Shown here piece by piece: positions 792 to 45,662 of a stretch of 50,081 bases of DNA. Under the pieces are notes generated by a model. The model made no database searches. It was given only the letters and a program-made list of their open reading frames with translations, and had not been told where the DNA came from. The position numbers were made by a program, and so were the translations under genes. The first letter of the stretch is position 1. Every line of letters starts with the position of its first letter. Origin of the DNA: a virus (Duplodnaviria > Caudoviricetes); IMG/VR virus record IMGVR_UViG_3300035670_000313, positions 1 through 50,081 of that record. One strand, 5' to 3'.

Positions 792-837
792 CTGTCATGG
801 TATAATTAATCCCAGTGATTAATTCATGGGAGATTTT

Positions 838-1824
838 ATGGCTGTTCAGCTAAGCGAGTCGCTAGGCTTTGCACCTGTTACCACCAAGGGTAACAAGTGG
901 CGTGTTAAGGTTATCGAGTCCGGCTGGGGCTCTTCTGGATACTACCCTGCGACCATGCTGGCTGCCTACGGCCCAGCTGTCTTTAAAAAAGGCACCAAGG
1001 TCTTTATGAATCACCCCTCCATGTCGGAGTCTTCAGACCGTCCTGAGCGTGACGTGCATCAGCTTGCTGGCAAGCTAGCTTCTGATGCCGTCTTCCAAGA
1101 AGGCGCACTTTATGCGGACGTTGAATTTTATTCTCACTATGCCCCAATCATTCGGGAGATGGCTGAGGATGTAGGTTTGTCTATCCACGCGTTTGGCGAA
1201 GCTAACGTTGGTGAGGCAGAGGGTCGTACCGGACCCATCATCGAAACTTTGGTGGCAGACCCACTGACAAGCGTAGATGTTGTAACCGTAGCCGGAGCTG
1301 GAGGCAAGTTCTTGACTCTTCTCGAAAGCTACACTAGAAAGGATGACGAAATCGTTGAGATTTCGGAGTCCCTATCGGAAGGAAATGAAAGCATGATTAC
1401 AAAGGAAGAGTTCGAGGCCGCAATTGACGACCTGAAGTCCACCCTTGTTGAGGCTCTCACTCCTCTACGCGAGTCGATTTCGGTTCTAGTAGAGGCTGCC
1501 ACTCCTGCCGAGGGTGAGGAAGTTGTCCCAGCTGAGACCGTTGAGGTCGAGGCAGAGGAAGCTATTGACCCTGTAGATGTGGCTGTGAAGTTCAACGAAT
1601 CTGGCCTGCCTAAGCTAGCCCTGTCCCGCGTGGCCGAGGCTCTTAAGAGCGAGTCGAACACCAAGTCTGTTGATGAATTGATTGCTGACGAGAAGGCTTA
1701 TGTCGTCGCAGTTTCTGAGTCAGCTGCAGCTCCTGTAGACACCTTTGGCGTTATCCAGGAAGCAATTACCACAACCAAAACCGATGAGTTCGACGCTATC
1801 GTCGCTCGCATCTCAAAGAAGTAA
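838..1824 (+). CDS. Capsid maturation protease / scaffold fusion
   Basis: N-terminal protease-like domain (VFMNHP...GLSIHA...SVDVVTVAGAGG), acidic helical C-terminus, upstream of capsid genes; start could be 826. Confidence 0.75.
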   Translation: MAVQLSESLGFAPVTTKGNKWRVKVIESGWGSSGYYPATMLAAYGPAVFKKGTKVFMNHPSMSESSDRPERDVHQLAGKLASDAVFQEGALYADVEFYSHYAPIIREMAEDVGLSIHAFGEANVGEAEGRTGPIIETLVADPLTSVDVVTVAGAGGKFLTLLESYTRKDDEIVEISESLSEGNESMITKEEFEAAIDDLKSTLVEALTPLRESISVLVEAATPAEGEEVVPAETVEVEAEEAIDPVDVAVKFNESGLPKLALSRVAEALKSESNTKSVDELIADEKAYVVAVSESAAAPVDTFGVIQEAITTTKTDEFDAIVARISKK

Positions 1825-1834
1825 GGAACAGTAA

Positions 1835-2182
1835 ATGGCTCTTAACGAGATTTACGTAGACGCTAATGAGCTCTCCCTTCCTGTTGACAGCGCCGTTGTT
1901 TCTGGCGACTTTGTCAAGGTAGGAGACCTTGTGGGCGTTGCACTAGTTGACGCTAAGACTGGTGAGAACGGCAGCTACTACAGCACCGTAAAGCTGTCTG
2001 GCGCATTTAAGATTGCCTTCAAGTCAGGCGACACCTTCGCAGTAGGCCAGAAGGCCTACGGTGTTGCAGACGGCGACGGCATCATTGCCGAGGTTCAGGA
2101 AGACGCAACCAGCGCTAAGCTAGTTGGACACGTCCTGAAGGTAAACACCGCCGACGTTGTTGTTCGTCTGGCTCAGAACTAA
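1835..2182 (+). CDS. Capsid decoration/cement protein (DUF2190-like)
   Basis: 115 aa, VVSGDFVKVGDLVGVALVDA pattern, directly before major capsid. Confidence 0.7.
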   Translation: MALNEIYVDANELSLPVDSAVVSGDFVKVGDLVGVALVDAKTGENGSYYSTVKLSGAFKIAFKSGDTFAVGQKAYGVADGDGIIAEVQEDATSAKLVGHVLKVNTADVVVRLAQN

Positions 2183-2193
2183 GGATAGATAGA

Positions 2194-3297
2194 ATGACTG
2201 AAAAGATTACCGCACGTCAGCTTGAGGCTGCAAAGCTCCTTGAGGGAGCACTCCGTGGTGACCGCGCAGACAAGCTAAAGCTACAGGAAGGTATCTCTAC
2301 CTCTGACCTGCCAGTACAGCTTGCTCCAACCATCAACAAGATTATGTTGGAGAACTACGCAGCTCAGCCAAAGGTCTGGGACCGCTTCGCAACCCGTCTA
2401 GTCGTTGACGACTTCCGCCCAGTAACCTTCCAGGCTATGCGCTACGAAGACGAGGGTATGGACAACGCAGGCGACAAGTTCCGCGATGGCTCACTACCTA
2501 CCGTTGCTGAGTACAGCGAGTACCCAACCGCTGGTTGGTTCAACGTAACCGAGCAGACCATGTCTGTGAAGAAGGCAGGAACTCGTATCCGCTTCTCATG
2601 GGAGACCATCGTTAACGACGGTCAGATTGGTCTACTAGAGCGTCTACCTATCGAGCTTGCACAGAAGGCAGCTGGCAAGGAAGATGAGGAAGTTACCAAG
2701 CAGCTAGTTTCTGACTCCGGTCTAAACACCGCTAACTTCAAGTCAGCAAACCAGAACCTACTAGCTGGAAACCCAGCTCTTACCCTAGAGTCCCTAGAGG
2801 ACGCAATCGAGGCTGCTAACCTGCAGACCTGGCAGGGTAACCTAATCACCCCAATTACCCGTTTCGCACTAGTTGTACCTCGTGCGCTAGAGATGACCGC
2901 TCGTCGCATCCTTGCTGTTCAGCAGGTTCGCACCGAGACCACCTCTGGTTCAACCGTAACCTCTCTTGTAACCGGAAACCCAATCGGTTCACAGGTTGAG
3001 ATTGTTGTCAACGACTGGCTAACCAAGATTAACTCTGGCGCTGGCAACTACTGGTTCCTGATTCCAGTTCCTGGACAGTCCCTAAACCCAGGTGTAGCCC
3101 TTGGCTTCCTCCGTGGTTACGAGACCCCAGAGCTACGTATCAAGATGAACGGTGGCACCTACCTAGGTGGCGGCGACGTTCCTGCTCGTGAGGGTTCGTT
3201 CGACAACGACGACTTCGAGATGAGAATCCGTCACATCGCAACTGGTGGCTTCATTGTCCCAACCGGTACCATCGCTTCAACTGGAGCTGGTGCCTAA
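2194..3297 (+). CDS. Major capsid protein
   Basis: 367 aa, position, strongly biased codon use, followed by terminator. Confidence 0.85.
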   Translation: MTEKITARQLEAAKLLEGALRGDRADKLKLQEGISTSDLPVQLAPTINKIMLENYAAQPKVWDRFATRLVVDDFRPVTFQAMRYEDEGMDNAGDKFRDGSLPTVAEYSEYPTAGWFNVTEQTMSVKKAGTRIRFSWETIVNDGQIGLLERLPIELAQKAAGKEDEEVTKQLVSDSGLNTANFKSANQNLLAGNPALTLESLEDAIEAANLQTWQGNLITPITRFALVVPRALEMTARRILAVQQVRTETTSGSTVTSLVTGNPIGSQVEIVVNDWLTKINSGAGNYWFLIPVPGQSLNPGVALGFLRGYETPELRIKMNGGTYLGGGDVPAREGSFDNDDFEMRIRHIATGGFIVPTGTIASTGAGA

Positions 3298-3322
3298 ACC
3301 TTAACCTTCTTTCTTGGTTAAA

Positions 3323-3360
3323 GAAAGCCCCTCAGGACCTTGAAGCCCTGGGGGGTTTTC
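3323..3360 (+). terminator. Intrinsic terminator after capsid gene
   Basis: AAAGCCCCTCAGG...CCTGGGGGGTTTT hairpin with T tract. Confidence 0.75.
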
Positions 3361-3416
3361 CCTTTCTGGATGGTCTATAATAGTTGACCCCCAAAAAATT
3401 AAAGAAGGATTGTTCT

Positions 3417-3647
3417 ATGTCTCAAGTAACGGTTTACACTCTTCCCTCCTGTGTGCAATGCGACAGCACTAAGCGATACTTGAAACGAGAACTAATCGAT
3501 TTTGTGGAAGTGCAGCTCCAGGATGACCCACAGGCGTACGAAATGGTCAGGGCTAAGGGATTTACTCAGGCACCAGTTGTAATGGCCGGAGAACGCATCT
3601 GGAGCGGTTTTAGAATGGATGAGCTCAAAGCCCTTAAGGCTGCTTAG
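3417..3647 (+). CDS. nrdH: NrdH-like glutaredoxin
   Basis: VTVYT..CVQC..TKR, APVV, WSGFR motifs. Confidence 0.9.
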   Translation: MSQVTVYTLPSCVQCDSTKRYLKRELIDFVEVQLQDDPQAYEMVRAKGFTQAPVVMAGERIWSGFRMDELKALKAA

Positions 3648-3672
3648 TTTTATTCTCTGGTATAATATAAAT

Positions 3673-3751
3673 AGTTGCGGCTCCTCCTTCTGCAACTTAT
3701 ATAGTGCACTACAAGCCCGCCCTGTTGAGTAATCTCCGGGGCGGGTTTCTT
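3673..3751 (+). ncRNA. Candidate small RNA with anti-Shine-Dalgarno hairpin loop
   Basis: TGG-TATAAT (3658-3666); 8-bp stem AGTTGCGG/CTGCAACT with loop CTCCTCCTT; terminator hairpin 3713-3751; no ORF. Confidence 0.65.
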
Positions 3752-3778
3752 ATAGCTGCCTGATAGAATTGTAGAACC

Positions 3779-4588
3779 ATGATTATTTGGCCCGATAACG
3801 GACTGCCGCCTCAAGCCCAGGAGTGGGCCGATAAAGTTGAGACGGAAGTTACCCGTATCGACAAGAAGACGGGCGGAAGCGGAGCTTCAGGCTCAGATGG
3901 TGCTCGTGGTCCTCAGGGGCCACAAGGTCCTGCTGGCCCTCAAGGTATTCAGGGCCCGAAAGGAGACCAAGGTGAACAAGGTCCTCAAGGTGAACAAGGC
4001 TTACAAGGCGAAGTCGGACCTGAAGGGCCTATTGGCCCTCAGGGAGCTCAAGGTGAGATGGGCCCTGCTGGGCCTCAAGGCGAACCCGGCCCCCAAGGTT
4101 TGCAGGGCGAGCAAGGTCCTGCCGGTCCAACTGGACCAACCGGTCCGCAGGGTGACACAGGACCTATGGGTCCTATGGGACCACAAGGACCACAAGGTGA
4201 AGTCGGTGCTACTGGACCGATGGGTCCAATGGGAGAGACGGGCCCAGAGGGGCCTATGGGTCCTCAGGGTATTCAAGGCCCAACTGGAGCTACAGGTCCT
4301 CAGGGCCCTAAGGGCGATACTGGGTCACAAGGTCTAGACGGCCTATCGGCTTATCAGGTAGCTCAGCTTAACGGTTTTACTGGCACAGAGCAGGAATGGC
4401 TTGACAGCCTTGTTGGAGCCGATGGTGCTACGGGACCACAGGGTCCCCAAGGTATCCAAGGAGAAACTGGCCCTCAGGGTCCAGCTGGAGCCGACGGACA
4501 ACCGTATGGTAATATTGATGGAGGAAAAGCTAATAGTGTTTATGGCGGGATTAGTCCACTATTGGGCGGAAATGCGAGTAGTTTTTAA
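3779..4588 (+). CDS. Collagen-like fibre protein
   Basis: Long G-X-Y repeat; [22 protein letters not shown] motif. Confidence 0.85.
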
Positions 4589-8195: not shown

Positions 8196-8522
8196 ATGTT
8201 TTACATCGACCCAAGTGGAAACTACCCACGATACTACGGCGACATCATGTCAGAGCACCCAGAGTGGCAGCTAGGCGATGAGCTACCTGAAGGCTGGCAG
8301 CTAGTTGCTGACGCACCTGCCCCAGAGTATGCTGAGGATGAGACTTTCGAAGATGGCGAGCCAGCTGTAATTGATGGCGTTTTGACTAGAACCTTTGTTG
8401 TTAGAAAACTAACAGCAGAGGAGCTAGAGGTTCGTCAAGCCCCACAGACTGCTAGGCAAAAGCTTGTTGACCTTGGATTCTCAGAGGTTGAAATCAACGC
8501 AATTGCCAGAGGCCGCATCTAA
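8196..8522 (+). CDS. Hypothetical (fibre assembly-like) protein
   Basis: 108 aa ORF after propeller gene. Confidence 0.55.
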   Translation: MFYIDPSGNYPRYYGDIMSEHPEWQLGDELPEGWQLVADAPAPEYAEDETFEDGEPAVIDGVLTRTFVVRKLTAEELEVRQAPQTARQKLVDLGFSEVEINAIARGRI

Positions 8523-34479: not shown

Positions 34480-34530
34480 TCCCTAGCCGAGAGTCGAACT
34501 CGGAGCGCCATTGCCATACCGTATCTAGGG
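34480..34530 (-). ncRNA. tRNA-like RNA 2 (acceptor + T-arm only)
   Basis: CCCTAG..CTAGGG-A and CCGAG-TTCGACT-CTCGG. Confidence 0.7.
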
Positions 34531-34532
34531 TT

Positions 34533-34560
34533 GTGCGTTTAAGCAGTCGCACCCCTGCCC
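34533..34560 (-). other. H-type pseudoknot in SSB 3' region
   Basis: GGGCAG/CTGCTT and GTGCG/CGCAC interleaved. Confidence 0.55.
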
Positions 34561-34572
34561 TTGTTTAGGAGA

Positions 34573-35037
34573 TTACCAAGGCTTCTCATCTACTGCGGTT
34601 GCGCCCAAGGATGCAAGAACATCCTCACCGCTAGTGGCCTTATCGAAGCCACTCACCTCGTTGCGAGGAGCGCCATTGATGTCCGAGCCAACCTTGACTC
34701 GAACTCCGATACCCTTGCCCAAGATATCGGCGGTAGCTGGAACCTTGAAGTTGCCAGCCTTTACGTCGTAGCCAAGCGACTTGAAGAAAGCAGCTGCCTT
34801 CCATGCGTCGTTGCCTGCGTACAGTGGGACGTAGCTGAAGACTCGGCGGTTCTCGTACTGCCCCTCAGAGATGCGGAACTGTACATTGAAACGCGGCTTG
34901 CCCTCGTTTGGTCCGGAGCGAACAGTCTCTTCCTTGATGTCGTAGACAGTCGCGTTGTAGGAGCCAGCAGGAATCGGGTCTAGTGAACCGGTCTTGGACT
35001 CAAGCGCATCTGCGCTAAATGAAATGGTGTAACTCAT
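34573..35037 (-). CDS. Single-stranded DNA-binding protein (DUF669-like)
   Basis: PIPAGSYNATV, GQYENRRVF, C-terminal KPW; follows Sak4-like ATPase. Confidence 0.75.
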   Translation of the reverse strand: MSYTISFSADALESKTGSLDPIPAGSYNATVYDIKEETVRSGPNEGKPRFNVQFRISEGQYENRRVFSYVPLYAGNDAWKAAAFFKSLGYDVKAGNFKVPATADILGKGIGVRVKVGSDINGAPRNEVSGFDKATSGEDVLASLGATAVDEKPW

Positions 35038-35798
35038 TATTTACCTCCCTTGATTAGTGAATAGATTTTCTTCAGGCTTGGCTCGGTAATCACCGGAGGC
35101 AAGTTGAAGCGGTTTTTGGTAACCAGTCTGTCAGATGACTCTACGACTAGCACACGCTGGGCTGAGCCGTCTTCCTTCTTCTGAGCGGTTAGGTAACCAA
35201 TGATGTCAGGTATTCCTGGCAAGTCCTTCTTGGAACCACCTGGGATGTTTGGAACGGTCTTCACCGCACCGGTGTTCTCATCCTTCTGGTCCTCGGCGTG
35301 AGTCAGAATGATGGAAGTGAATGGAGCAGAGTGCAAGGCTCGGACTGTATCGTTAGCCCAAATCTTCAGGTCGCCCCACTTGCCGAACTTGTTACCCTTG
35401 TTCTCTGGCTTCTCGCCAAAGAACTTCTCGGCCCTGTCCATCGCAACACCGAAGGTGTCGATGATAACAGTCTTGTACTTGTGCTTGACGTTGATTAGGT
35501 CAGTGATTACCCTATCCAACTTCTCGTGAGAGTCGACGTTGATTACGTCGACTTCCTTGAAGTCGCGGGCAATAGCTGATGCTCCACCCTCGACATCGAT
35601 TAGTAGCACAGGTGATAGCTCTGCAAGCTCAGCTGCTGAAGCAGCTAGCCAAGTCTTGCCTCGGCCTGCATCACCGTAGATAAGAATCGTCTTCGGTGCG
35701 TTGAGTGCCTCTGCCTTGTGAATAAACTTGGCAAATGATAGCTCTGGGAAGTCGCTTCCCTTGGTGGCAGCTGGTGCTGCGGTTGACGTTTCGCCCAT
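35037..35798 (-). CDS. Sak4-like / AAA_24 ATPase (recombinase)
   Basis: GDAGRGKT Walker A, VIIDT, ILTHA. Confidence 0.8.
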   Translation of the reverse strand: MGETSTAAPAATKGSDFPELSFAKFIHKAEALNAPKTILIYGDAGRGKTWLAASAAELAELSPVLLIDVEGGASAIARDFKEVDVINVDSHEKLDRVITDLINVKHKYKTVIIDTFGVAMDRAEKFFGEKPENKGNKFGKWGDLKIWANDTVRALHSAPFTSIILTHAEDQKDENTGAVKTVPNIPGGSKKDLPGIPDIIGYLTAQKKEDGSAQRVLVVESSDRLVTKNRFNLPPVITEPSLKKIYSLIKGGK

Positions 35799-35819
35799 AT
35801 TATTTCCTCCTATTTGTTA

Positions 35820-36527
35820 TTATAGCAGCCCTGACACTGAGCAGTTGAAGCACTCAGGGTGGCCTGCATATGACTCTGGATGAACTCCATTTTGTAGCTC
35901 CTCCCATAATACCACGAGCCTGTTCCACAATGCAACTGCAATAGACTCGTCGTACGCGAATGTGTATTCTAGCACATCCGAATCGCTGGTGCCGTCTCTG
36001 TTGATGAACACAAGCGAAATGTTATCAATTTGTAATCCAGACTGAGCCACGCCCCAAGCATAGAGTTGTGTCTGTCCGATGTACTTTTGCATCGTGTAGG
36101 TTGTGCCTGCATCTTGCTTGGTGCCATCGACCCATGCCTGAATCTTCTTGGTCTTTGCCCTGGTCGAAGTCTTCCAGTCTACCAAGTGGTTGATAGCTGG
36201 AAGCACAAGGTCGGGCTTGCTTGACACTGTGCCGTAGCCATCAATCTCTCCAAGCACAATCTTCTGCTCGACTCTTGCATCGACAAGTTCCTCTGCATCG
36301 GAGTGCTCAATAGCAGCTTCGATGGCTGAGTGAATCGCGGTTCCAACCTTGCCACCTAGCCAGTACTTGCTTGGCTCTGGCTCAACACCTGCCAAGGCCA
36401 GTGCCAAGTGCTTGGTGCATGGGTTAGATATCTGAGACGCTCCGACCTTCTTCTGGCCGTCACGCTCAGTCTTAGTGTTCAATAAAGAAATCGCTAAGTT
36501 CTTCAACCTCGAACCATTCGTAACCAT
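35820..36527 (-). CDS. Cas4-like PD-(D/E)xK exonuclease
   Basis: GASQ...C, GTAIH, PDL...DWKT, QLYA, C-terminal CFNC. Confidence 0.8.
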   Translation of the reverse strand: MVTNGSRLKNLAISLLNTKTERDGQKKVGASQISNPCTKHLALALAGVEPEPSKYWLGGKVGTAIHSAIEAAIEHSDAEELVDARVEQKIVLGEIDGYGTVSSKPDLVLPAINHLVDWKTSTRAKTKKIQAWVDGTKQDAGTTYTMQKYIGQTQLYAWGVAQSGLQIDNISLVFINRDGTSDSDVLEYTFAYDESIAVALWNRLVVLWEELQNGVHPESYAGHPECFNCSVSGLL

Positions 36528-37020
36528 TCTTGTACCTCCTCTTAGTGTAGTTGACTCCGCCCCAAATGCCGTACTCTTGACGGCTTGCTTCGGCAAAGTT
36601 ACCGCACTCCTTGATTAGCGGGCAACCTTCGCACAATGACTTGGCATCCCGCTTGCTTACGTGTTCTGGGTTGTCGAATATCTGTTGCATACTTCTGCAT
36701 GGCACGTCAGTCTTTTGTAACTTACTCTGCAAATCTGCAAACAACTTTGCCGAGTAGTCGTCCAAGAATACGCTCTGCGGAATTACGCTTGGCATTAGTG
36801 GCTCTGGCTTTGCCTTGGTCTTGCCTGCGTGTTTGTTCTCTTGGTACTTCTTGCGGGCATACCTTCTGCGACACTCTCGACAAACTCTGGTCTTGTCATA
36901 AGGACGGATAAAGGTATTCTCTTCGGTGAACTCATGTCCTCTGGAGCAGTGAGTACCCTTCGCTCGCTTGCGTCCCCATGGGTTGGACTTGTCAGCTTCT
37001 TCCCATACGTACTCTGCCAT
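36472..37020 (-). CDS. whiB: Zn-finger + WhiB-family transcription factor fusion
   Basis: THCSRGHEF..ENT...CREC then C-x21-CEGC-x5-C...GIWGG. Confidence 0.8.
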   Translation of the reverse strand: MAEYVWEEADKSNPWGRKRAKGTHCSRGHEFTEENTFIRPYDKTRVCRECRRRYARKKYQENKHAGKTKAKPEPLMPSVIPQSVFLDDYSAKLFADLQSKLQKTDVPCRSMQQIFDNPEHVSKRDAKSLCEGCPLIKECGNFAEASRQEYGIWGGVNYTKRRYKNGYEWFEVEELSDFFIEH

Positions 37021-37203
37021 TTAGTAATCCTCGTCGTAGTCGTAGTGCTTCGGTCTAACTTGTGAAGTCAGCGGTTGTGGTTTGAACTCTCTGGTGAACA
37101 CCATGAACAGTGGTAGCACAGTGGTCAGCAGGAATACGGCACCAACATAAGCTCCGAATCCAAGTATCAGTGCAACAATAAAGTAATGTATTGGCTCAGG
37201 CAT
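37021..37203 (-). CDS. Small membrane protein
   Basis: Hydrophobic N-terminal segment; RBS AAGGAG. Confidence 0.55.
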   Translation of the reverse strand: MPEPIHYFIVALILGFGAYVGAVFLLTTVLPLFMVFTREFKPQPLTSQVRPKHYDYDEDY

Positions 37204-38569
37204 CCTTCTCCTTCAAACTTGCTCGCAAGTCCAGCTCTCGCTGGAGTAGCGTATCTAATTGTCCTTCATCATAAGTGTCACGTGCCACGATGTCATACAC
37301 CTGCACCAATTGCTTCTGCCCACGCCTGCGAATGCGGTCAAGCACCTGCTGGTTTAGGATGTTGCTATCGCTGTGGCTCAGCCACACAACTGTGCGACAT
37401 GAATCCTGCAAACCATCCACGCCCTCGGCAATCGCTGGGATTACCGCCACGATGAATCGCTTGGAACCGTTGATGAACTCCTGCTTGGCCTGCTCACGCT
37501 GTGGCTGTGTTGCCGTACCACTCCACTCGAAAGCAGAACCCTCGCCATACTTGGCATTGAGTCGGTCGGTCACAATCTTAGCGTACTTCTGGCTATCTGT
37601 CAAGAGCAACATCTTCTCATCGGGGTTGTCCTCGATAATCTCCAGTAGCGCTTGGTACTTGGTTGACACTGCGTCATCCGCAAAGTAAACCTCGCCAGTC
37701 TCGGTCAGGCTTGGCACAGCTAGGGTCATCTGGCGCAACCGAATGCGGGCTGCAATTGGAACCTCTGCAACCAGTGGGTTCTCCTGCAACCAGACAACCA
37801 AGTCGCGCTGGAACTTCTCGTAAACCTTACGCTGGCTTGGGACTAGGTCAACATACCTAGTCTCCTGCACCACGTCAATGTTATAGTCTGGCTCTAGGCG
37901 GACATAGCATGGAAGGGTATTTGCGAATGCACCTGGTACCTTCTCGCCCAGAATCTCGACGTTTGAGAATGGGTTGTAAGCGGTGTTTGCCCAACGCTCT
38001 ACCCACTTCCAGAATGACTTTGGCACAATCTTGTCATCAGGCCAAAGGAATCTAGTCACTGCCCAGAATCCCTCGAATCGGTTGCCGAATGGCGTACCCG
38101 ACATGGACAACTTGAAGCCTGCCTTCAAAGTCTTGGCAACCTTGAATCCCTTGCTTGCTCGGTTCTGCATGAAGTGGCACTCGTCAACCAACACGATGTC
38201 TGGCACAACCTTGGCCCACTCCTTGGTGCGGAAGTACTCACGACCGACAAAGTACCAACCCTCTTTGCCCTCGGTAATGCCACGCATTGCGTCGCGCCCC
38301 TTGGTGCTAGAGTCAATCTTGAACAAGCCGTTCGCGGTGTACTCGGTCTGTCTCTGAATCGTATCGTGCCATCCCCAGTAGGTGTTTAGCGGTGCGATGA
38401 TTAGCACAGTCTTAGCCTTGAGTCTGAGTGCAACCTCGGTTGCCATCAGGGTCTTGCCAGTACCCATTAGGCTAGCATTCAATGCAGCCTTGGTGGGCTC
38501 TGCGACAATCTTCTGAATCGCAACCTCCTGCTTTGCATCAGGGGTCAGCCTTGGTAGCTTCGCTCTCAT
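37196..38569 (-). CDS. SF2 (SNF2-like) helicase
   Basis: MGTGKT, DECH, SGTP, EGVDGLQ, RIRRRGQ; RBS AGGAGG before ATG 38569. Confidence 0.9.
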   Translation of the reverse strand: MRAKLPRLTPDAKQEVAIQKIVAEPTKAALNASLMGTGKTLMATEVALRLKAKTVLIIAPLNTYWGWHDTIQRQTEYTANGLFKIDSSTKGRDAMRGITEGKEGWYFVGREYFRTKEWAKVVPDIVLVDECHFMQNRASKGFKVAKTLKAGFKLSMSGTPFGNRFEGFWAVTRFLWPDDKIVPKSFWKWVERWANTAYNPFSNVEILGEKVPGAFANTLPCYVRLEPDYNIDVVQETRYVDLVPSQRKVYEKFQRDLVVWLQENPLVAEVPIAARIRLRQMTLAVPSLTETGEVYFADDAVSTKYQALLEIIEDNPDEKMLLLTDSQKYAKIVTDRLNAKYGEGSAFEWSGTATQPQREQAKQEFINGSKRFIVAVIPAIAEGVDGLQDSCRTVVWLSHSDSNILNQQVLDRIRRRGQKQLVQVYDIVARDTYDEGQLDTLLQRELDLRASLKEKDA

Positions 38570-38692
38570 TATCCTCCTTGTGACATTCACAAATACAATC
38601 AACTGTGCTGGCAACTGCGTAGCAATTGCGGTGGTCATCCATCTTGCACCAACTGAAGATGGTGTACTGCTTGGGTGGTGGTGGCTCGGTGC

Positions 38693-38899
38693 CTAGTCTT
38701 CGCTTACCCAGAACTGAACTCCGATATACCAGTGAATCAGCATCAAGTGCACCGACCTATTCAGGTGGTCGTAAGTCAGCTCCAATCCCCAGTCTCCACT
38801 CTCGCCAAAGTAAATCTCGGCTGTGTGTCCGAATGAAATGTAGCCACCGCGGAACCATTGGTGCCATGCGAAACCTAGCTTGCCCTTTTGTCTAGTCAT
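38693..38899 (-). CDS. Hypothetical protein
   Basis: ORF with RBS AAGGAG before MTRQK. Confidence 0.5.
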   Translation of the reverse strand: MTRQKGKLGFAWHQWFRGGYISFGHTAEIYFGESGDWGLELTYDHLNRSVHLMLIHWYIGVQFWVSED

Positions 38900-39062
38900 T
38901 GCTCTCCTTTGATTTGTGTAATGTGTTCCTTTAGGTCGGCAACAGTCTTGCCGCAAGTGCAGTCTGTCCAGCCTGCATCAAAGCCAGCCCATTCGTGACC
39001 GTCATTGTCTTGAAGAATCTCTTGTCCAAGGCGAATCATCTCAGTCAAGTGTTCTTCCCTGC

Positions 39063-39323
39063 TCACTTCTGCTCTCCTTTTATTAGCTCGATTAGGTCTG
39101 TGATTGTGTATTGGTCTAGCGGATTGCAGTCATGCTCTTTGCCGTCAGCCTCGCAATCTAGGCTTTTTAGCAGCTTGATAATGCGCTCTTCAGTCTTAGC
39201 AATAATTTTTGCCTCGTATTGTGCCAGCCATAAATCAAAAGCACGCTTAGCAGCCTTGGAGTCGCTAAACTCGCCGCTGTATTCGTCACGCACTTCTTCT
39301 GTGGTGGGTATGTAGTCACTCAC
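39063..39323 (-). CDS. Hypothetical protein
   Basis: Coupled early-region ORF. Confidence 0.55.
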   Translation of the reverse strand: MSDYIPTTEEVRDEYSGEFSDSKAAKRAFDLWLAQYEAKIIAKTEERIIKLLKSLDCEADGKEHDCNPLDQYTITDLIELIKGEQK

Positions 39324-39519
39324 TTCTGCTCTCCTTGCTTATAAGGTAAAGCAGGTTTGCCATCGTGAAGTCGGGCTTACCGCTGTATTGATTTATGATT
39401 TTCACAATGCGGTCATGCTCATGCTTCACGCCTGAGTTGAATGCCCTTGTCGCATTGCCTGCGATAATCTCCTGCAACTGTCCGCTACTTGGGTGCCTTA
39501 GCATTGCTTCCTCAATCAT
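39316..39519 (-). CDS. Hypothetical protein
   Basis: Coupled early-region ORF. Confidence 0.55.
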   Translation of the reverse strand: MIEEAMLRHPSSGQLQEIIAGNATRAFNSGVKHEHDRIVKIINQYSGKPDFTMANLLYLISKESRSE

Positions 39520-39761
39520 AAGTCCTCCAACTCATCACGCTTGCCGTCATCTAGGAATAGCTCTGAATACAACTGCATCACTCGCTCCTCGGCAGAACCG
39601 AATGTCTCAAAGTATTCACGCCCGTTTGTCCTCGGTGCTGTAACCCAAAGGTCTAGCTCCTCGTCCACGCCGAACTCAATCGGCTTGCCAACCTGCTCTG
39701 AGTAAAACTCGGTCAGGTTTGTTGCTGTCTCGTGTAGCTCGAACCATCTATCGTCCCGCAT
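39516..39761 (-). CDS. Hypothetical acidic protein
   Basis: RBS AGGAGG; coupled. Confidence 0.55.
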   Translation of the reverse strand: MRDDRWFELHETATNLTEFYSEQVGKPIEFGVDEELDLWVTAPRTNGREYFETFGSAEERVMQLYSELFLDDGKRDELEDL

Positions 39762-40230
39762 TGATTACCTCCTGTACAACACCTTCTCGATAAAGCACCG
39801 ACTGAACCCATAGGTCTCCGTCAACTGCCGTAATGTTTTCACCGTCTTCATCAATGGTGAATGTCGCTTCGCCTGTCTGTTGGTCAGCGCCGAATGCCAC
39901 GATGCGAACCGCAAGCTGGTCACCGTATCGCACAACTCTGAGTGCGGACTGTGGCACAACGCTTGAATCGTCTACGCCTGCATCCTCAATCAGCTTGCGA
40001 ATCGTACCTGGGTCGGACGAACCATAAGCCATGCCAATCTGCCTAGCCGAATGCCCGTCAACCAAAGCCAATCGAACCGCATCAATCAGCTCGTCGTAAT
40101 ACTCTTTGGTCTCGGCTTCGATGAATGTCTTTAGCTTTTCCTGCGCTACCTTGATAGCTTCTCGGTGCTTAGCTCTGGCTTCGGTAATGGCAGATAGTCT
40201 GCCGGTGTCCTGCTTTGCTACTCTTCCCAT
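39748..40230 (-). CDS. Hypothetical protein with possible HTH
   Basis: GHSARQIGMAYGSSDPGTIRKLI. Confidence 0.55.
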   Translation of the reverse strand: MGRVAKQDTGRLSAITEARAKHREAIKVAQEKLKTFIEAETKEYYDELIDAVRLALVDGHSARQIGMAYGSSDPGTIRKLIEDAGVDDSSVVPQSALRVVRYGDQLAVRIVAFGADQQTGEATFTIDEDGENITAVDGDLWVQSVLYREGVVQEVINAGR

Positions 40231-40442
40231 GCTCCTACCTCCTCAAAGTAGTTGAATGTTTCATCGCACTCTGGGCATCGAACCTCGGTGTCAATCACCT
40301 TGTAGTCGTCAACCCAAAGGTCTTCCTCGAACTCGTGGTCACAAGCTGGGCAATCAAGGACGGTTGCCCTGTCGTAACTGTTGACACCACTGCCCATCCA
40401 CGTGTCTCTCACTAGTAGCTCCTCCATACTTTTAGCGTCCAA
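40218..40442 (-). CDS. Small Zn-ribbon protein
   Basis: CPAC...CPEC. Confidence 0.6.
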   Translation of the reverse strand: MDAKSMEELLVRDTWMGSGVNSYDRATVLDCPACDHEFEEDLWVDDYKVIDTEVRCPECDETFNYFEEVGAWEE

Positions 40443-40861
40443 GTCTTCAGCTTATCATCAAGCAGGAAGTCTGTCAATGCCCGCTCTAGTCGCAAGAACT
40501 GCTCGCTAATCCATTCCTCTGGGTCATCGCTACCGTATTCCAACCCGCTGGCTAGCTCTGGGTCTGTGGCAATCCGTCTTGCCCGTAGGATAGCATCCTC
40601 TAGGTCAGTGCGGTCTAGGTCTAGCTCATACTCGTCCCGCTCAGGGTTGCCTGCCAAATTCCAAAGGAATGAATCAACCGCCTGCGCTCTGTGCCAAGTA
40701 GCAATCGGAATCGTAACCTCAATGTTTGCGGTTGCATTGTGGCGACCACCAATGTCTAGCGGAATCACATCCTCTAGCGCATCGCGGACTCTCTGATAAG
40801 TGTCCTTGTCCAAAAAATCCGACATGTAGTTAGTTGCTCTTAGATAAGTTGATAGTCCCAT
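40412..40861 (-). CDS. Hypothetical protein
   Basis: 149 aa, coupled TAATG start. Confidence 0.6.
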   Translation of the reverse strand: MGLSTYLRATNYMSDFLDKDTYQRVRDALEDVIPLDIGGRHNATANIEVTIPIATWHRAQAVDSFLWNLAGNPERDEYELDLDRTDLEDAILRARRIATDPELASGLEYGSDDPEEWISEQFLRLERALTDFLLDDKLKTWTLKVWRSY

Positions 40862-41193
40862 TAGTTTCCTCCAATTTTGATTTCATACTCTGGCAGTCGC
40901 TCCACCCAGCGAGTCACTCTAGCAGGTGGCTCTCCAATTGTCAAGTAGGTTGAGAACTCGCGGTTTGAGTAGCCCTCCCAATAAGTTCGGATGGTGTCCC
41001 ACTCTTCTGAATCTAGAATGTAAGCCACCACCTCGCGGTTCGCCTTTGCCTTCATCGCAATCTCTAGCGGTCGTCCACTTTTCTTGTCGGTGCGAATGAA
41101 CTCTCCGCCGGCAACGCCTAGCTTGTAAGCCTGTACAACTAGGACATCGTCCTTCACAAAGATGTCAAGTGCGTGTGCTTTAGTTGTTGTCAT
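40861..41193 (-). CDS. Hypothetical protein
   Basis: 110 aa ORF with RBS. Confidence 0.55.
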   Translation of the reverse strand: MTTTKAHALDIFVKDDVLVVQAYKLGVAGGEFIRTDKKSGRPLEIAMKAKANREVVAYILDSEEWDTIRTYWEGYSNREFSTYLTIGEPPARVTRWVERLPEYEIKIGGN

Positions 41194-41441
41194 GTCTAAT
41201 CCTCAATCCACTTGGTGTCATCCAGAATCCAGCGAATCCTGTCGGCTACAATCAAAGCCTCTAGCTCATTGCTCTCAAACATTACTCTGCCCCTCCCTGT
41301 AGTCGCACAACAATCTCATTGATATCCTTGATGGTGTTCTTTATCATCAGTTGGATAATCGCCGAGTATTCCTTCTCCTGCTTGTTCCATAGGTATTGTG
41401 CGTAGTCCTTCAGGTATTGGGCTACACGCTTCTCTTCTTCT

Positions 41442-41822
41442 CTACTCAACATTTGCTACGCTCTTTTCTAGGTTTAGGGTTAGTTTGCGGAATGGTCTGC
41501 GGGTGGTGTCCTGTTCCTCCCACTCGACTACAATGCCGTTCTGGGCTAGGGTCGCAAGGACTCGCTTGCCCGAGTCGTTGAGTTCTCCGTCGTCCTTAGT
41601 CAGGTTGCCATGGTTGAACATCCAATCGCTGTATTCATAGCTGTTGCCCGATACAACATTGCGGTTACCCTGCCCGCCGAAACTCCAGATTACTGGCACC
41701 TCGTCCGCTAGGTCTAGGTTCGCACAACTCTGGCAACATGCCGATACATTGCGCTTGGCTACAATCCCCTGTCGGCGTAGCTGTTTGAATGCGTTGTCTA
41801 ATCTCTTCTCTAGTGTTGTCAT
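41442..41822 (-). CDS. Hypothetical protein with CCxxC motif
   Basis: AFKQLRRQGIVA...ACCQSC; own promoter and RBS AGGAGG. Confidence 0.65.
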   Translation of the reverse strand: MTTLEKRLDNAFKQLRRQGIVAKRNVSACCQSCANLDLADEVPVIWSFGGQGNRNVVSGNSYEYSDWMFNHGNLTKDDGELNDSGKRVLATLAQNGIVVEWEEQDTTRRPFRKLTLNLEKSVANVE

Positions 41823-41850
41823 AATTTCCTCCTTCAGAACCAACATGATG

Positions 41851-41879
41851 ACATTATCAGATTATTTAGTTATTGTCAA
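41851..41879 (-). promoter_or_regulatory. SigA-type promoter
   Basis: TTGACA-17-TAATGT with TG extension. Confidence 0.7.
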
Positions 41880-42181
41880 GCCACTCGGAATAAACCTCTG
41901 TGCCTTGTATAAAGTCAATCGTATTCACAATTGCCCCATAGTATCCCGCGTCATAGGCGCTTGGTTTGCGGTTTGCTTCTAAGGTCTTGCGCTCTTGCTC
42001 TAGCCATTTGATTAGGTCTTCCATCAGTCCTCCCAATCCTCCACGCCCGCAACCTCGCCGTCGAACTCTGAGATAATCCCGCGAATCCTGTCAATCGCGT
42101 TGTGTCCAATCGCAAACGCTTCGTCCTCAGACTCGGCTTCGACAATCAACCATGTTGATAGGTCTACATTGTATTTAGGCA

Positions 42182-42451
42182 TTAGTCCTCCTCTATCTCA
42201 ATCCACGCATCTAGGTGGTGTGCTTCGACAATAGCACTTGCGGGTGCCGTTGTCAAGCCCCTGTAACTTACCCCTATTGGCAAGTCAATCTTGCGGTGCC
42301 AATCAAGTTCGTGGAATGCTTCAATCGCATTCTTACAAACCTCTACCATCTCCAACGGAATCGGCGGATAGTGGTTGACTCTCAAATGGTAGGCTAGTGC
42401 TTCGTCAATCGGTAGTGCTTCCGCTATCGCCATTGCTGTCATGCTTCCCAT
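42182..42451 (-). CDS. Hypothetical protein
   Basis: HLRVNHYPP...HHLDAW; RBS GGAGG. Confidence 0.6.
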   Translation of the reverse strand: MGSMTAMAIAEALPIDEALAYHLRVNHYPPIPLEMVEVCKNAIEAFHELDWHRKIDLPIGVSYRGLTTAPASAIVEAHHLDAWIEIEED

Positions 42452-42657
42452 TAGTCCTCCTCTATAACCCTAAACTCAAATCCATTATCGCCTTCTTGTT
42501 TGGCTCTCTCAAACTCTTCCTCGCTCTCAAAGTAGTAGAACACTCTGCTGTCGTCCTCCTCGCTTAGCGGGTCGAATGGTTCATCAATCGCAACCTTGGT
42601 GGCAATCGGTGTATCGCCGTCATGCCATTGAATCAGAACATCAACTAGGTAACTCAC
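42451..42657 (-). CDS. Hypothetical acidic protein
   Basis: Coupled ORF, probable GTG start. Confidence 0.5.
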   Translation of the reverse strand: MSYLVDVLIQWHDGDTPIATKVAIDEPFDPLSEEDDSRVFYYFESEEEFERAKQEGDNGFEFRVIEED

Positions 42658-43016
42658 TAGTAAACCTCCGCCCAAACATAGCCATTCTCGCTTCGGTAAA
42701 AGTCATGGCGCAAGTTCTTGTCCCATGTCTTCTCCCAATCCACCTCTAGGTAAGTTTGAATGGTGGACTCGGTGTCATAGTTCTCAAAGTAGAACTTAGC
42801 AAAGTCCGCGGTTGAATCGTGTTGCCCGTAGTAGCTGTCGGTCTCCCACTCAATCCACTTTTCTAGGTTCTCGCGGATTACCTCTAGTCGCTCTGGCTCT
42901 GTGCTGTAATTGCCAACCAACCCGACATAGTCGGCTAGTCGGTCGAAATCCTCATGCTCTAGCCCTAGCTCTTCGGCTACTAGCTCTAGCTCTTCTGCGG
43001 TTGCGTGAATAAACAT
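42657..43016 (-). CDS. ArdA-like acidic anti-restriction (DNA mimic) candidate
   Basis: YYGQHDS.ADFA...Y.EVDWEK.....D.Y...GYVW; very acidic; own promoter. Confidence 0.55.
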   Translation of the reverse strand: MFIHATAEELELVAEELGLEHEDFDRLADYVGLVGNYSTEPERLEVIRENLEKWIEWETDSYYGQHDSTADFAKFYFENYDTESTIQTYLEVDWEKTWDKNLRHDFYRSENGYVWAEVY

Positions 43017-43043
43017 TTTGCCCTCCTCTTGGCTTGTGTTATG

Positions 43044-43072
43044 AAGCTACCATACTTTTTCTATTTTGTCAA
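43044..43072 (-). promoter_or_regulatory. SigA-type promoter
   Basis: TTGACA-17-TAGCTT with TG extension. Confidence 0.65.
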
Positions 43073-43663
43073 ATTGGCTTGAAAATACCTCGCGGACATC
43101 TAGCAAATCCTCCACCTCGTAATCGGTGCGGACTAGTACTTGCCAGATAGCCTGTCCCTTGGTTCTCGCCATCTCGGCGAACCCAACTGTCTGCCCGTCC
43201 CTCCTAAAGGCTAGGCTGTAGTTCTTCAAGGCAATCCTCGGTCGCGTAGTTGTGCTGTGTTATCTTCGCACAAGTGTGGCAGAATCTCAAATACATTATG
43301 CCAACCTCACAAATAGGTCGCCTAGTGCCTTCCGGTCACGCTCTAGCTTTTGGACTAGGTCGTCCTCGCGCGGCAATCCCTCGCCAACCAACTCTAGAAT
43401 CTTGCGCTCTACTAGCCATTGTGCGTGTAACAAGGCGTTGTACTCGTCCTTGGTCAATCCTCTACTCATTGGTATCCTCCTCGGTCTTGGTCTTGGTTGC
43501 CTTCGGTTTGTCCTCGGTCACCTTCGGAACTGTCTGAACCCAATAGACATGCTCTGGCAAATCTATGTCGGGATTATTTAGGACTCGGCGCAACCAAAAG
43601 TCCGCCTCTAGCCCGCCGTTGTCGGTCTGTGGGTCTAGCTCTACGCTGTAAGTAATTAGGTAT

Positions 43664-43948
43664 TTAGCCAATTCGAACCTCCCGCTTGTTGGCGTTATCC
43701 CAAATCGCAATCTGTTGCCAAAGCGCAGCCAACATTGTCGCCCTTGTCAAGTTGCGGACTAGGCGTGTCTTGTCGAACCAAACCGTACCCGTTTCTGAAT
43801 CCGTCCAAACGCCAACCACCATGCCAGACTCTAGTTCGGTTGGGTGAACAACCTTTTCTGCCACCCAATAGCCGTCATTCATGGTAATCGGGAGGAATCT
43901 CCCGTTTTGGTATAGGTAAGTTCCGTCTTGTAGTTTTGGCAATTTCAT
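43664..43948 (-). CDS. Hypothetical protein
   Basis: MKLPKL..VGVWTD.ETG.VWFD...QIAIWD; RBS GGAGG. Confidence 0.55.
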   Translation of the reverse strand: MKLPKLQDGTYLYQNGRFLPITMNDGYWVAEKVVHPTELESGMVVGVWTDSETGTVWFDKTRLVRNLTRATMLAALWQQIAIWDNANKREVRIG

Positions 43949-44130
43949 TAGTTGTCCTCCCAATAGGCTAGTTCCGTCCCGCAAGTCTGGCAGACTTCGG
44001 GTGTGTAAAGTTCGTGACATCCATACCATCCATTGTAGTTGTCGCTAAACTTGGCGCAACTATCCGAACAAAAATACTCAAGGTCAATCAAGTCGCCGTT
44101 AGCGTCTTCGATTAGATTTACATTAGCCAT
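43948..44130 (-). CDS. Small Cys-rich protein
   Basis: FCSDSC...CQTC; RBS GGAGGAGG. Confidence 0.6.
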   Translation of the reverse strand: MANVNLIEDANGDLIDLEYFCSDSCAKFSDNYNGWYGCHELYTPEVCQTCGTELAYWEDN

Positions 44131-44155
44131 TAGTTCCTCCTCCGAACTTGTATTG

Positions 44156-44209
44156 ACATTATAAAAGATTTGAATCCTTGTCAAGTTAGTTTGATAACAA
44201 TTTGGTAAC
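44156..44209 (-). promoter_or_regulatory. SigA promoter with upstream GTTAC-n6-GTTAT box
   Basis: TTGACA-17-TAATGT; box at 44194-44209. Confidence 0.65.
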
Positions 44210-44218
44210 AAACTTGTT

Positions 44219-44255
44219 TGTAGGTTTTCTACAATCGTTTTGTAGGTTTTCTACA
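44219..44255. repeat. Tandem palindromic 15-mers in AT-rich region
   Basis: TGTAGGTTTTCTACA at 44219 and 44241. Confidence 0.8.
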
Positions 44256-44539
44256 TATGAAATTGTGAATTGTTTTATATAACATAATCCGAATTGTGTT
44301 ATAAATCTATCTTTTAGATGGATACCTAACAAGTAGCCACCTAACACTATTCGGCGTTGTCTGAGAGTTGGCTGGGAAAAATCGAAGGATTTTGCCCGCG
44401 ACACGCCGTAAAAATTCCAAATCTCAGAACGCGTTTAGTAAATAATATTATGTATTATTATAAAATAATAAAACATAATGTAATGGGAGGGGGGTGTCGG
44501 CTAAAAGTGTGAAAATTAGTCTAGCCCCCCTAGACAAAA

Positions 44540-44665
44540 CTAGTCCTCGAATTCTGTAACTTCGATTAGCAACTTCTGAATCCGCGACACCTTCTCGCGG
44601 TGTTCTTGTGAATCTTCCGCATAGAATAGTGTTGCTAGGTAATCGAACACTTGTTCGGTTGTCAT
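44540..44665 (-). CDS. 41-aa early protein (not in ORF track)
   Basis: AGGAGG RBS, MTTEQVFDYLATLFY...; promoter at 44699-44728. Confidence 0.55.
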   Translation of the reverse strand: MTTEQVFDYLATLFYAEDSQEHREKVSRIQKLLIEVTEFED

Positions 44666-44698
44666 TCCGTCCTCCTGTTTGTTTCGGTGACAAGTAAG

Positions 44699-45130
44699 AC
44701 GCTACACCATACGGGAGGGTTGTGTCAAGTTGAAACGCCAAATTGTTTATAACAAAATCGTTATCGAAATCCCCTTGACAACTAGCCTTCGATAGTGTAT
44801 AACCGCGCGGGCGGGTGCGGGTGCGAGAATCCTAGTCCCTAGTGGCTATCTTGTCAAATCCATGGGATACCTCTAAAACGCCCTAGAATCGAATCTGGCG
44901 GGAGATAGTGCCGTTAGCATAGAATCACCTTAGGGCGGTCGAGTTCGCCCGTTAGCGGGCGTTACCAAATCGTTATAAAACACCCCTTGACAACGGAACC
45001 GAAAAGTGCTAGACTAGATAGAGGGTCGGCGCTCGCAGATTTTGGGCAGGGGTGGATTATCCGGTTCCCGTTTGGGAGGCACACCGGCTACCTCTGTGCT
45101 AACTCTAGCAAACTTTTTTTGAGTTGTCAA
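44699..45130. promoter_or_regulatory. Cluster of five SigA-type promoters in alternating orientation
   Basis: TTGACA at 44723-28(-), 44775-80(+), 44852-57(-), 44987-92(+), 45125-30(-), each with a TAnnn(T/C) 17-18 bp away. Confidence 0.65.
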
Positions 45131-45374
45131 GTATCTGGTCGAATCTGGTGCCAGTTCGGGACTCGCACCCGAATGTCTGCTTGTCTGGCTGTTGTGCTAG
45201 AGGGTGGTACCCGATAGCGCCATCGCCATGGTGACGATGAAGAATGCCATTGCTAGATAGTAGCTCATTTGCTTACCTTTACTTTAGTTGTCTGGTATTT
45301 GGCTTGTCTGGCGTTTCTTAGGTGAATCGCCTTTAGTTTGGAATCTAGTGTCCGCTTAGAGTCTGGTCGCGCCA

Positions 45375-45626
45375 TTATGCCCACGCCCTCTCGCTAGCCT
45401 TTAGTGGCTTTAGCCCTAGGGTTCTACGGATTAGCCCTTGGTGCTTGCTAGTTGTCACCGAATACTTGCGAGAGTCTAGTTCCCAGCCGCCCTGATAGAA
45501 CCACGCTATTGGCGTGTTGTAGCTGAAAATTACATAAGTTTCGCCGTTCTGGTAACCGAACATAGTGTTACCGCGGAAGTTCTCGCGGTTGCGAATCTTT
45601 TGCTCAATAGTCTTGTAGTTGTCCAA
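45375..45626 (-). CDS. Hypothetical phage protein
   Basis: SYNTPIA...YSVTTSKHQ; RBS AGGAGG, TTG start. Confidence 0.65.
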   Translation of the reverse strand: MDNYKTIEQKIRNRENFRGNTMFGYQNGETYVIFSYNTPIAWFYQGGWELDSRKYSVTTSKHQGLIRRTLGLKPLKASERAWA

Positions 45627-45662
45627 TTGTTCCTCCTGTTTAGGTTACGGCGCTCGCCGTAG

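Follow-up and report, generated by a model that had tools for sequence, protein, structure and literature searches.

Does a tailed phage time its own translation with RNAs that copy the 3' tail of 16S rRNA? The question is raised by IMG/VR virus record IMGVR_UViG_3300035670_000313 (Duplodnaviria; Caudoviricetes), a complete phage record that is 50,081 bases long and has direct terminal repeats of 127 bp; it was analysed at its full length and is called the window below. Strong Shine-Dalgarno (SD) sequences are frequent before its early genes and rare before its virion genes, and it encodes two RNAs, small RNA 1 and RNA 2, that carry anti-SD loops. An earlier note on this DNA had joined these observations in the proposal that the RNAs silence strong-SD early and host mRNAs while sparing virion mRNAs. 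The arms, genes and RNAs on which the argument turns are as follows.

826 to 29658, plus strand: late (virion) arm, encoding capsid, tape measure and collagen-like tail proteins
29718 to 45626, minus strand: early (replication) arm, with replication genes and many small open reading frames (ORFs)
2194 to 3297, plus strand: capsid gene
34238 to 32034, minus strand: DUF3987 primase gene
34243 to 34263, minus strand: tandem GGAGG SDs before the primase ATG at 34238
3673 to 3748, plus strand: small RNA 1, located past the capsid region and ahead of the next tail gene
34402 to 34324, minus strand: RNA 2, tRNA-like, 79 nt, upstream of the primase gene

Strong SD sequences are concentrated in the early arm

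GGAGG motifs were counted independently of gene calls if an ATG, GTG or TTG with an open frame of at least 40 codons followed them at a distance of 3-10 nt, with the minus strand of 29700-45700 taken as early and the plus strand of 800-29700 as late. Of the 41 GGAGG motifs in the early arm 25 are so placed (at 24 distinct starts), whereas in the late arm 1 of 25 is, and that one (1300/1312) lies inside the gene at 826-1824; antisense controls gave 0/14 and 1/11. All nine early GGAGG motifs named in the earlier note (34243, 35044, 35806, 38573, 41828, 43022, 44136, 44671 and 45632) are present, each 3-10 nt upstream of a minus-strand start opening at least 40 codons, and the late starts that it had described as poor in GGAGG (1835, 2194, 4794, 6154 and 9442) carry AAGGA or AGGA and no GGAGG. 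Most late-strand GGAGG motifs cluster at 11809-12064 and 14437-14938 (plus), inside the genes 10891-12135 and 13807-15102; away from gene starts, these clusters look like glycine-rich repeat coding.

Genes of both arms were called with one simple gene finder, and a strong SD was defined as GGAGG, AGGAG or GAGGT with a spacer of 3-12 nt. Strong SDs were found at 4 of 48 capsid-strand and 17 of 38 primase-strand genes when SD-blind starts were used (Fisher 1.2e-4), and at 6/48 late versus 25/38 early genes with best-SD starts (Fisher 3.4e-7), and the difference in SD strength that had been read from selected genes is thus significant on full counting. The long forms in the early arm are GGAGG, GAGGAGG and AAGGAGG. 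Late starts have AAGG, AGGA or GAGG in 24/48 cases and no SD in 18/48; AGGAG is present at two late genes (25386 and 26891), and GGAGG at two small plus-strand genes (46480 and 47431) that precede the terminase gene. Leaderless-type starts, defined by a TAnAAT hexamer ending 4-10 nt ahead of the start codon, were seen at 5 of 47 late genes versus 0 of 38 early genes.

Translational coupling was considered as the cause of the weak late SDs and rejected. Among tightly spaced genes, whose starts lie -30 to +15 nt from the upstream stop, strong SDs occur at 4/23 late versus 15/19 early genes, and the split persists in the coupled, 16-60 nt and >60 nt spacing classes. Since it is kept in every spacing class, the split is not a by-product of gene packing. 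Simple matching of -10 boxes revealed no difference in promoter class between the arms, both of which use the same -10 type.

The window and 15 complete or nearly complete relatives made up a family set of 16 genomes. The two-arm layout is common to all 15 relatives, and strong SDs are commoner in the early arm in 16/16 genomes. Pooled over the set, strong SDs precede 78 of 634 late versus 240 of 663 early genes with SD-blind starts, and 107/634 versus 303/663 with best-SD starts. Genomes differ in how large the split is: in four of them (G003, G011, G012 and G015) it falls short of significance with best-SD starts, and with SD-blind starts that of G007 likewise misses p = 0.05. Tightly spaced genes of the 15 relatives have strong SDs in 60/296 late versus 184/360 early cases, and leaderless-type starts over the 16 genomes number 52/631 late versus 4/662 early. 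The SD split is a family-wide trait.

Small RNA 1 is a conserved unit with a predicted promoter-hairpin-terminator layout

Hairpins that show CCUCC in the loop are not rare by chance: the window contains 11 of them, and 100 Markov shuffles gave 9.35 +/- 3.06, no excess. Both RNAs were therefore established through relatives and not through a single sequence. The parts of small RNA 1 and the elements around it are these.

3658 to 3666, plus strand: extended -10 promoter (TGnTAnAAT) of small RNA 1, ending 6 nt before the hairpin
3673 to 3697, plus strand: hairpin 1, 8-bp stem and 9-nt loop (3681-3689) reading CUCCUCCUU, an anti-SD copy
3713 to 3748, plus strand: terminator hairpin, separated from hairpin 1 by a spacer, with a conserved inner GAG/CUC helix and followed by a U-rich run
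3764 to 3781, plus strand: TAGAAT -10 box and, 9 nt further on, the ATG of gene 3779 (leaderless-type start)
3301 to 3367, plus strand: weak second match of model R1 (35.6 bits), directly past the capsid stop, with a terminator

A covariance model, R1, was built from 15 small RNA 1 sequences. It placed one copy of small RNA 1 in each of 16/16 genomes and gave 59 matches in 77 sources. In relatives the RNA lies downstream of the capsid gene, and its stems differ much while its loops are nearly identical. Over 48 distinct sequences, 98.1% of stem cells are paired, compared with 69.3% after shuffling and 43-52% with slid partners, in an alignment that was fitted to R1 and is hence biased toward the structure. 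Both sides change in 15 of 18 pairs; all six modelled pairs of hairpin 1 (a 6-bp core) and 8 of 9 outer pairs of the terminator covary. In a model-independent check that took the best hairpin of each sequence on its own, a stem of at least 5 bp was found in 35/35 sequences, with 25 different 5' arms. Hairpin 1 of the window folds with z = -4.0. Among the 48 distinct loops CUCCU is present in 46 and CCUCCUU in 32. The second R1 match at 3301-3367 has a U/C-rich loop that contains no CCUCC.

The surroundings of the RNA are conserved as well. Of 50 distinct loci, 46 have a TAnAAT box whose end lies 2-12 nt (mostly 6-7) ahead of the hairpin and 47 have a leaderless-type start at the gene that follows, and many relatives possess a separate capsid terminator ahead of small RNA 1. 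Read from these aligned sequences, small RNA 1 is a real, structured and conserved RNA, and a new family.

The inner GAG/CUC helix of the terminator with its two-base bulge (3725-3737, plus; columns 71-73 with 88-90 of alignment A5) is nearly invariant. An invariant inner helix within a covarying outer stem suggests a binding site or a tertiary contact.

RNA 2 carries the same kind of loop on a tRNA-like scaffold

RNA 2 and the elements next to it are laid out as follows, all on the minus strand.

34402 to 34324: RNA 2 as a whole, built of an acceptor stem (6-7 bp), a short linker in which GG is invariant, a T arm whose loop is the canonical GTTCGAnTC, and discriminator A
34381 to 34357: its 25-nt CU-rich loop, which caps a central stem of 6 bp
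34480 to 34530: truncated tRNA-like copy (23.3 bits) upstream of RNA 2, with acceptor stem and T arm and no CU-rich loop
34532 to 34560: hairpin with a conserved A-rich loop, found 5' of RNA 2 in many relatives with covarying stems
45662 to 45750: tRNA-like minihelix that heads the early arm, called an odd tRNA by ARAGORN

An alignment made with MAFFT only had 91.8% of stem cells paired over 20 sequences that were preselected for a paired acceptor stem and T arm. A second covariance model, R2, found RNA 2 in 16/16 genomes and gave 70 matches in 76 sources. Over 52 distinct sequences 93.3% of cells are paired versus 64.4% after shuffling, and 16 of 17 pairs covary: 6/6 in the acceptor stem (93.2% paired), 6/6 in the central stem and 4/5 in the T arm (100% paired). 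The RNA is 66-84 nt long among relatives and its loop 9-25 nt. CUCCU is present in 49 of the 52 loops and CUCCUUU in 37. Covariation of this extent argues that RNA 2, too, is real and conserved, and it is a new family. The two CCUCC-displaying RNAs that the earlier note had proposed at 3673 and 34324 do lie at these places, structured and conserved.

RNA 2 is tRNA-like in having an acceptor stem and a T arm with GTTCGAnTC, and CCA is encoded after it in some relatives. Identity as a tRNA was rejected: there is no ARAGORN call, no Rfam tRNA match at E up to 5 and no D stem, and the loop spans 9-25 nt. Identity as a transfer-messenger RNA (tmRNA) was rejected likewise, pair 3-70 being C-G in 48/52 sequences, U-A in 4/52 and never G-U, and ARAGORN finding no tmRNA. 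A search of the whole window against Rfam returned nothing at gathering score, and at E up to 5 the three RNA regions gave chance-level matches, with no 6C, cuckoo/CcsR-type or RsaE family among them. No promoter belonging to RNA 2 itself was seen in the sequence. True tRNA genes adjoin RNA 2 in several relatives, and in Arthrobacter phage Molivia its place is taken by a tRNA-Gly gene and an undetermined tRNA. Because tRNA genes occur at or next to the same place, RNA 2 probably descends from a tRNA-type gene. The A-rich-loop hairpin likewise precedes the tRNA-Gly gene of Molivia (L221, about 8310-8345, minus).

Such an origin bears on the explanation that neither RNA acts in trans, RNA 2 being a decayed tRNA gene or a processing signal of the early transcript and small RNA 1 the 3' end of the capsid operon. 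The true tRNA genes at this position in related phages and the further truncated tRNA-like pieces in the window would fit it. A decaying gene, however, would not hold 93% pairing over 52 distinct sequences, the loops of both RNAs are kept while their stems covary, and small RNA 1 has its own -10 box in 46/50 loci and, in many relatives, a capsid terminator separate from it. We therefore consider this explanation highly improbable.

Several other elements were observed near these RNAs. A 13-bp hairpin at 34266-34300 (minus), in the gap between RNA 2 and the primase gene, has a GGGAGGG-type loop complementary to the loop of RNA 2; it is confined to the closest relatives as far as seen and could be a cis partner of RNA 2. 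The minihelices at 45662-45750 and 34480-34530 have no anticodon arm and may be processing signals. The T arm of the former accounts for the GGAGG/CCTCC at 45671 and 45687.

Both loops copy the 16S rRNA tail and are predicted to pair better with early sites

The likely host was approached through relatives of the phage. Megablast of both arms against GenBank phages gave no match. Capsid and terminase are about 40-46% identical to proteins of Arthrobacter and Clavibacter phages and of one phage labelled Stenotrophomonas, and IMG/VR holds at least 132 relatives for the capsid and at least 81 for the primase. Two contigs of metagenome-assembled genomes (MAGs) that bear a capsid relative are labelled Actinomycetota and uncultured Rhodoluna; these labels and a WhiB gene in the phage point weakly to a freshwater actinobacterium as the host. 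A 16S gene is absent from both MAGs, and a different genome from the genus of the Rhodoluna-labelled MAG served as a host proxy.

The 16S rRNA of the host proxy ends in CACCUCCUUUCU. Both loops reproduce this tail (CCUCCUU, CUCCUUUC), which makes them complementary to long SDs such as AAGGAGG. The predicted duplexes with ribosome-binding sites (best-SD starts) had median energies of -9.9 kcal/mol early versus -5.7 kcal/mol late for the loop of small RNA 1, and -12.6 versus -8.5 kcal/mol for that of RNA 2. The comparison of early with late sites that the earlier note had suggested thus favours the early ones for both loops in predicted energies, and in its co-occurrence check both RNAs accompany the split in 16/16 genomes. 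To separate a genome-specific fit from this general preference, the loops of each genome were paired with the early sites of all 14 genomes in the comparison, and row and column means were removed. The loop of RNA 2 pairs more favourably with early sites of its own genome than with early sites elsewhere in the set (double-centred diagonal -0.374 kcal/mol, p ~0.0003 by permutation), and no such fit was found for late sites (0.008) or internal coding segments (0.027). The own-genome fit of RNA 2 is a hint of support for a link between the RNAs and the split, from 14 genomes whose shared ancestry the test ignores.

Loops that agree with the rRNA tail itself, in RNA 2 as far as the terminal UUUC, could also serve as decoys. 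They would mimic the 16S 3' end and absorb a factor that recognises or cuts it, for example a host endoribonuclease that removes the anti-SD, so as to protect the ribosomes, and SD-independent late genes would be a second safeguard. Actinobacterial MazF toxins that remove the anti-SD do exist, according to excerpts of PMC12274833, and UCCUU occurs in the loops of both RNAs (41/48 for small RNA 1, 39/52 for RNA 2). CACCU, the MazF site given in the same excerpts, occurs in just 3/48 small RNA 1 loops, however; no such nuclease is known in the presumed host, though no search was made for one, and decoys do not predict that RNA 2 would fit the early sites of its own genome. Decoy function appears improbable on this evidence.

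For the host side, 160 kb of the host-proxy genome were run through the crude gene finder already applied to the phage. Strong SDs were found at 17 of 152 genes with SD-blind starts and at 27 of 152 with best-SD starts, and median energies ranged from -5.2 to -6.2 kcal/mol versus -5.8 to -6.5 for the late genes of the phage. Host-proxy genes thus resemble late genes, which makes the silencing of host mRNAs, the other half of the original proposal, doubtful. Provided that the host is correctly assigned, it is the early genes that stand apart, and an anti-SD RNA would hit mainly the early messages of the phage. A takeover of the host, in which the RNAs repress the minority of host genes with long SDs and leave the early genes of the phage alone, would have those 17-27 genes as potential targets, and bacterial anti-SD-loop small RNAs do have specific target sets in the excerpted accounts of PMC6486639 and PMC4615179. 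Most strong SDs in the infected cell would nevertheless belong to phage early genes (25/38), and the loops add little specificity beyond a generic anti-SD; we regard a takeover of this kind as distinctly improbable.

The resemblance between host-proxy and late genes, in strong-SD counts as in medians, also favours an explanation in which the split and the RNAs are unrelated. Strong early SDs would capture ribosomes at the start of infection, late genes would follow the host style and draw on abundant transcripts, and the RNAs would do something else. The -10 boxes of one type in both arms and the loop of small RNA 1, for which no own-genome fit to early sites was found (p = 0.18), agree with it. 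It leaves unexplained why two unrelated RNA scaffolds keep rRNA-tail loops while their stems drift and why the loop of RNA 2 tracks the early sites of its own genome, and the host assignment that it needs depends on one binned MAG contig and on crude gene calls. We consider it unlikely, if far from negligible.

The split and the RNAs in cultured phages

Three more distant phages were examined. In Clavibacter phage CN1A, annotated starts have strong SDs in 6/30 late versus 17/30 early genes (Fisher 0.007), and R1 matches directly after the capsid gene (29.8 bits) at a hairpin with an anti-SD loop that is followed by a gene with a leaderless-type start. That gene is annotated with a CTG start at 42755 (stretch L223, 12755-12860, minus); an ATG about 100 nt upstream of this CTG lies 6 nt past a TAGACT box, the leaderless-type layout of the family. 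Phage Jojan60 has strong SDs at 12/26 late versus 42/59 early genes (Fisher 0.049), with medians of -7.9 versus -11.9 (p = 2e-5), and gave a weaker R1 match of 20.2 bits with filters off, whose loop contains CCUCCUUUC. Directly upstream of its primase gene Jojan60 has an element resembling the tRNA domain of tmRNA (L229, 6725-6810, minus), which has a T arm, G-U as the third pair of the acceptor stem and ACCA encoded in the sequence, and no tag reading frame. Jojan60 encodes WhiB although its recorded host is Stenotrophomonas. Model R2 had no match in CN1A or Molivia, and its two weak matches in Jojan60 are an annotated tRNA and another tRNA-like element, not RNA 2.

In Molivia the split is weak (11/28 versus 21/35, p = 0.13) and the medians are equal. 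R1 matched just the capsid terminator there and found no small RNA 1, while inspection by eye showed, at the place of small RNA 1, a hairpin of 14 bp whose 7-nt loop is CU-rich. A CU-loop hairpin next to so weak a split is a further point for the explanation that separates the RNAs from the split. No relative that clearly has no small RNA 1 was found among the 16 genomes, CN1A, Jojan60 and Molivia. The link between the RNAs and the split is neither supported nor refuted by CN1A, Jojan60 and Molivia.

Comparison with known systems

The closest functional precedent is the RegB nuclease of phage T4. According to excerpts of PMC3014915, RegB cuts GGAG in the ribosome-binding sites of early and not of late mRNAs, acts within a minute of infection, controls its own gene and frees the translation apparatus for later genes. 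The present phage is similar in that its early and late genes differ in SD type, early ribosome-binding sites sharing an SD motif that late ones lack, and in that a phage product matches the early type. It differs in that RegB, a protein, is a nuclease dependent on ribosomal protein S1, whereas the candidate effectors here are pairing RNAs. PHROGs named no RegB-like nuclease among 17 scanned early-arm proteins (of about 38 early ORFs).

Among bacterial RNAs, the excerpted accounts in PMC4615179 and PMC6486639 describe the cuckoo/CcsR family (CCUCCUCCC loops), RNAIII/RsaE and 6C of Actinobacteria as having anti-SD-like C/U-rich loops on stems with compensatory drift; such RNAs pair with ribosome-binding sites and, in high-GC Gram-positives, do so unaided by a chaperone, 6C binding G-rich ribosome-binding sites in this way. 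Both phage RNAs likewise keep a C/U-rich loop on a covarying stem. In contrast to cuckoo, RsaE and 6C, they are phage-encoded, match no Rfam family and carry a single loop each; the rRNA tail is reproduced more exactly in these loops (CCUCCUU, CUCCUUUC), they are coupled to a genome-wide SD split, and one of the two RNAs is built on a tRNA-like scaffold.

That scaffold shares with the tRNA-like domain of tmRNA its acceptor stem, the GG linker in place of the D arm, the T arm and discriminator A; the anticodon arm has given way to a long stem, and CCA is encoded in some relatives. Unlike tmRNA, RNA 2 has no G3-U70 pair, mRNA-like part or pseudoknots, and its stem ends in an anti-SD copy. Viral tRNA-like scaffolds serve small-RNA processing.

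In the full-text literature, a scope outside which most subscription journals lie, we found no phage-encoded RNAs of this kind and no SD split linked to them. The remark of the earlier note that no such system had been described in a phage therefore stands for phage-encoded RNAs, while for the principle it was anticipated by the T4 RegB protein and by bacterial anti-SD-loop RNAs.

A possible translational switch

Unlike the split, the RNA structures, the anti-SD copies and their co-occurrence, which were observed, the expression of the RNAs, their pairing with mRNA, the repression and its timing are what we infer. In the manner of the C-rich loops of 6C, RNAIII/RsaE and the cuckoo RNAs, the exposed loops of both RNAs would pair with the long SDs of mRNAs and occlude them, damping the translation of strong-SD messages, which in the infected cell would be mainly those of the phage's own early genes. 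Once the RNAs have accumulated, early translation would be damped, and the weak-SD and leaderless virion messages would be spared and left to the ribosomes. The whole system would be an RNA counterpart of T4 RegB. That the two RNAs mask SDs in this way, with early genes damped and virion messages spared, is the reading that we tentatively prefer, and we rate it as possible and somewhat short of even chances. More specifically, the phage may run a programme made of RNA only, in which two mimics of the 16S tail mask long SDs and shift ribosomes from early messages to weak-SD or leaderless virion messages, and in which the mimic on the tRNA/tmRNA-like scaffold may be processed or delivered like a tRNA; this fuller version is rather doubtful, though it may hold. 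Such an RNA programme appears to be spread over a broad group of actinobacterial phages, cultured ones included.

Several observations weigh against SD masking by the RNAs. RNA 2 is not simply a late product, because it is encoded within the early arm and its synthesis would coincide with that of its supposed targets, and nothing marks small RNA 1 as late, because -10 boxes of the same type are used in both arms. Production of RNA 2 from the early arm is not fatal to SD masking; T4 RegB, too, belongs to the early products of its phage. To repress at least 25 targets, the RNAs would need to reach very high abundance. The better hybridisation of early sites is trivial in itself, given loops that copy the rRNA tail and an existing SD split. 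The genome-specific fit that goes beyond it is limited to RNA 2, small RNA 1 showing none, and comes from 14 genomes with no correction for shared ancestry. The minimum-energy fold of RNA 2 in the window partly pairs its loop with an upstream GGAG. Co-occurrence is uninformative, because all relatives examined carry small RNA 1 or a look-alike, and Molivia combines a look-alike with a weak split. One run labelled RNA-Seq (contigs, probably of DNA) yielded scattered pieces on the window, mostly 90-95% alike.

Other features of the genome

The remaining assigned features of the window are these.

19520 to 24505, plus strand: tape measure gene
47791 to 49302, plus strand: terminase gene, ahead of the late arm across the terminal repeat, after small genes
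49336 onward, plus strand: likely portal gene, called solely by its position after the terminase gene
Early arm: proteins including a DnaQ-like exonuclease/subunit, exonucleases, an AAA_24 ATPase, an SNF2 helicase and a WhiB-HNH protein

The WhiB-HNH protein (36472-37020, minus) combines an HNH endonuclease part and a WhiB-like part in one chain. A gene for an NrdH/glutaredoxin-like protein of 76 amino acids with a CxxC motif lies between the capsid gene and small RNA 1 (3417-3647, plus); it has its own -10 box and an AAGGA site, and the ORF list gives a longer TTG ORF from 3384.

Implications

The proposed switch is plausible and has good precedents. Irrespective of mechanism, the analysis adds two new and widespread families of phage RNA, with about 48 and about 52 distinct sequences and strong covariation. 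Gene callers that reward SDs will misplace late-arm starts in phages of this kind. The placement of small RNA 1 in the cultured phages CN1A and Jojan60 makes the idea testable at the bench. If the RNAs do mask strong SDs, initiation of virion genes from leaderless and weak-SD messages would gain a clear purpose, and this phage would be, within the literature searched, the first one demonstrated to control the timing of its translation through small RNAs modelled on the rRNA tail.

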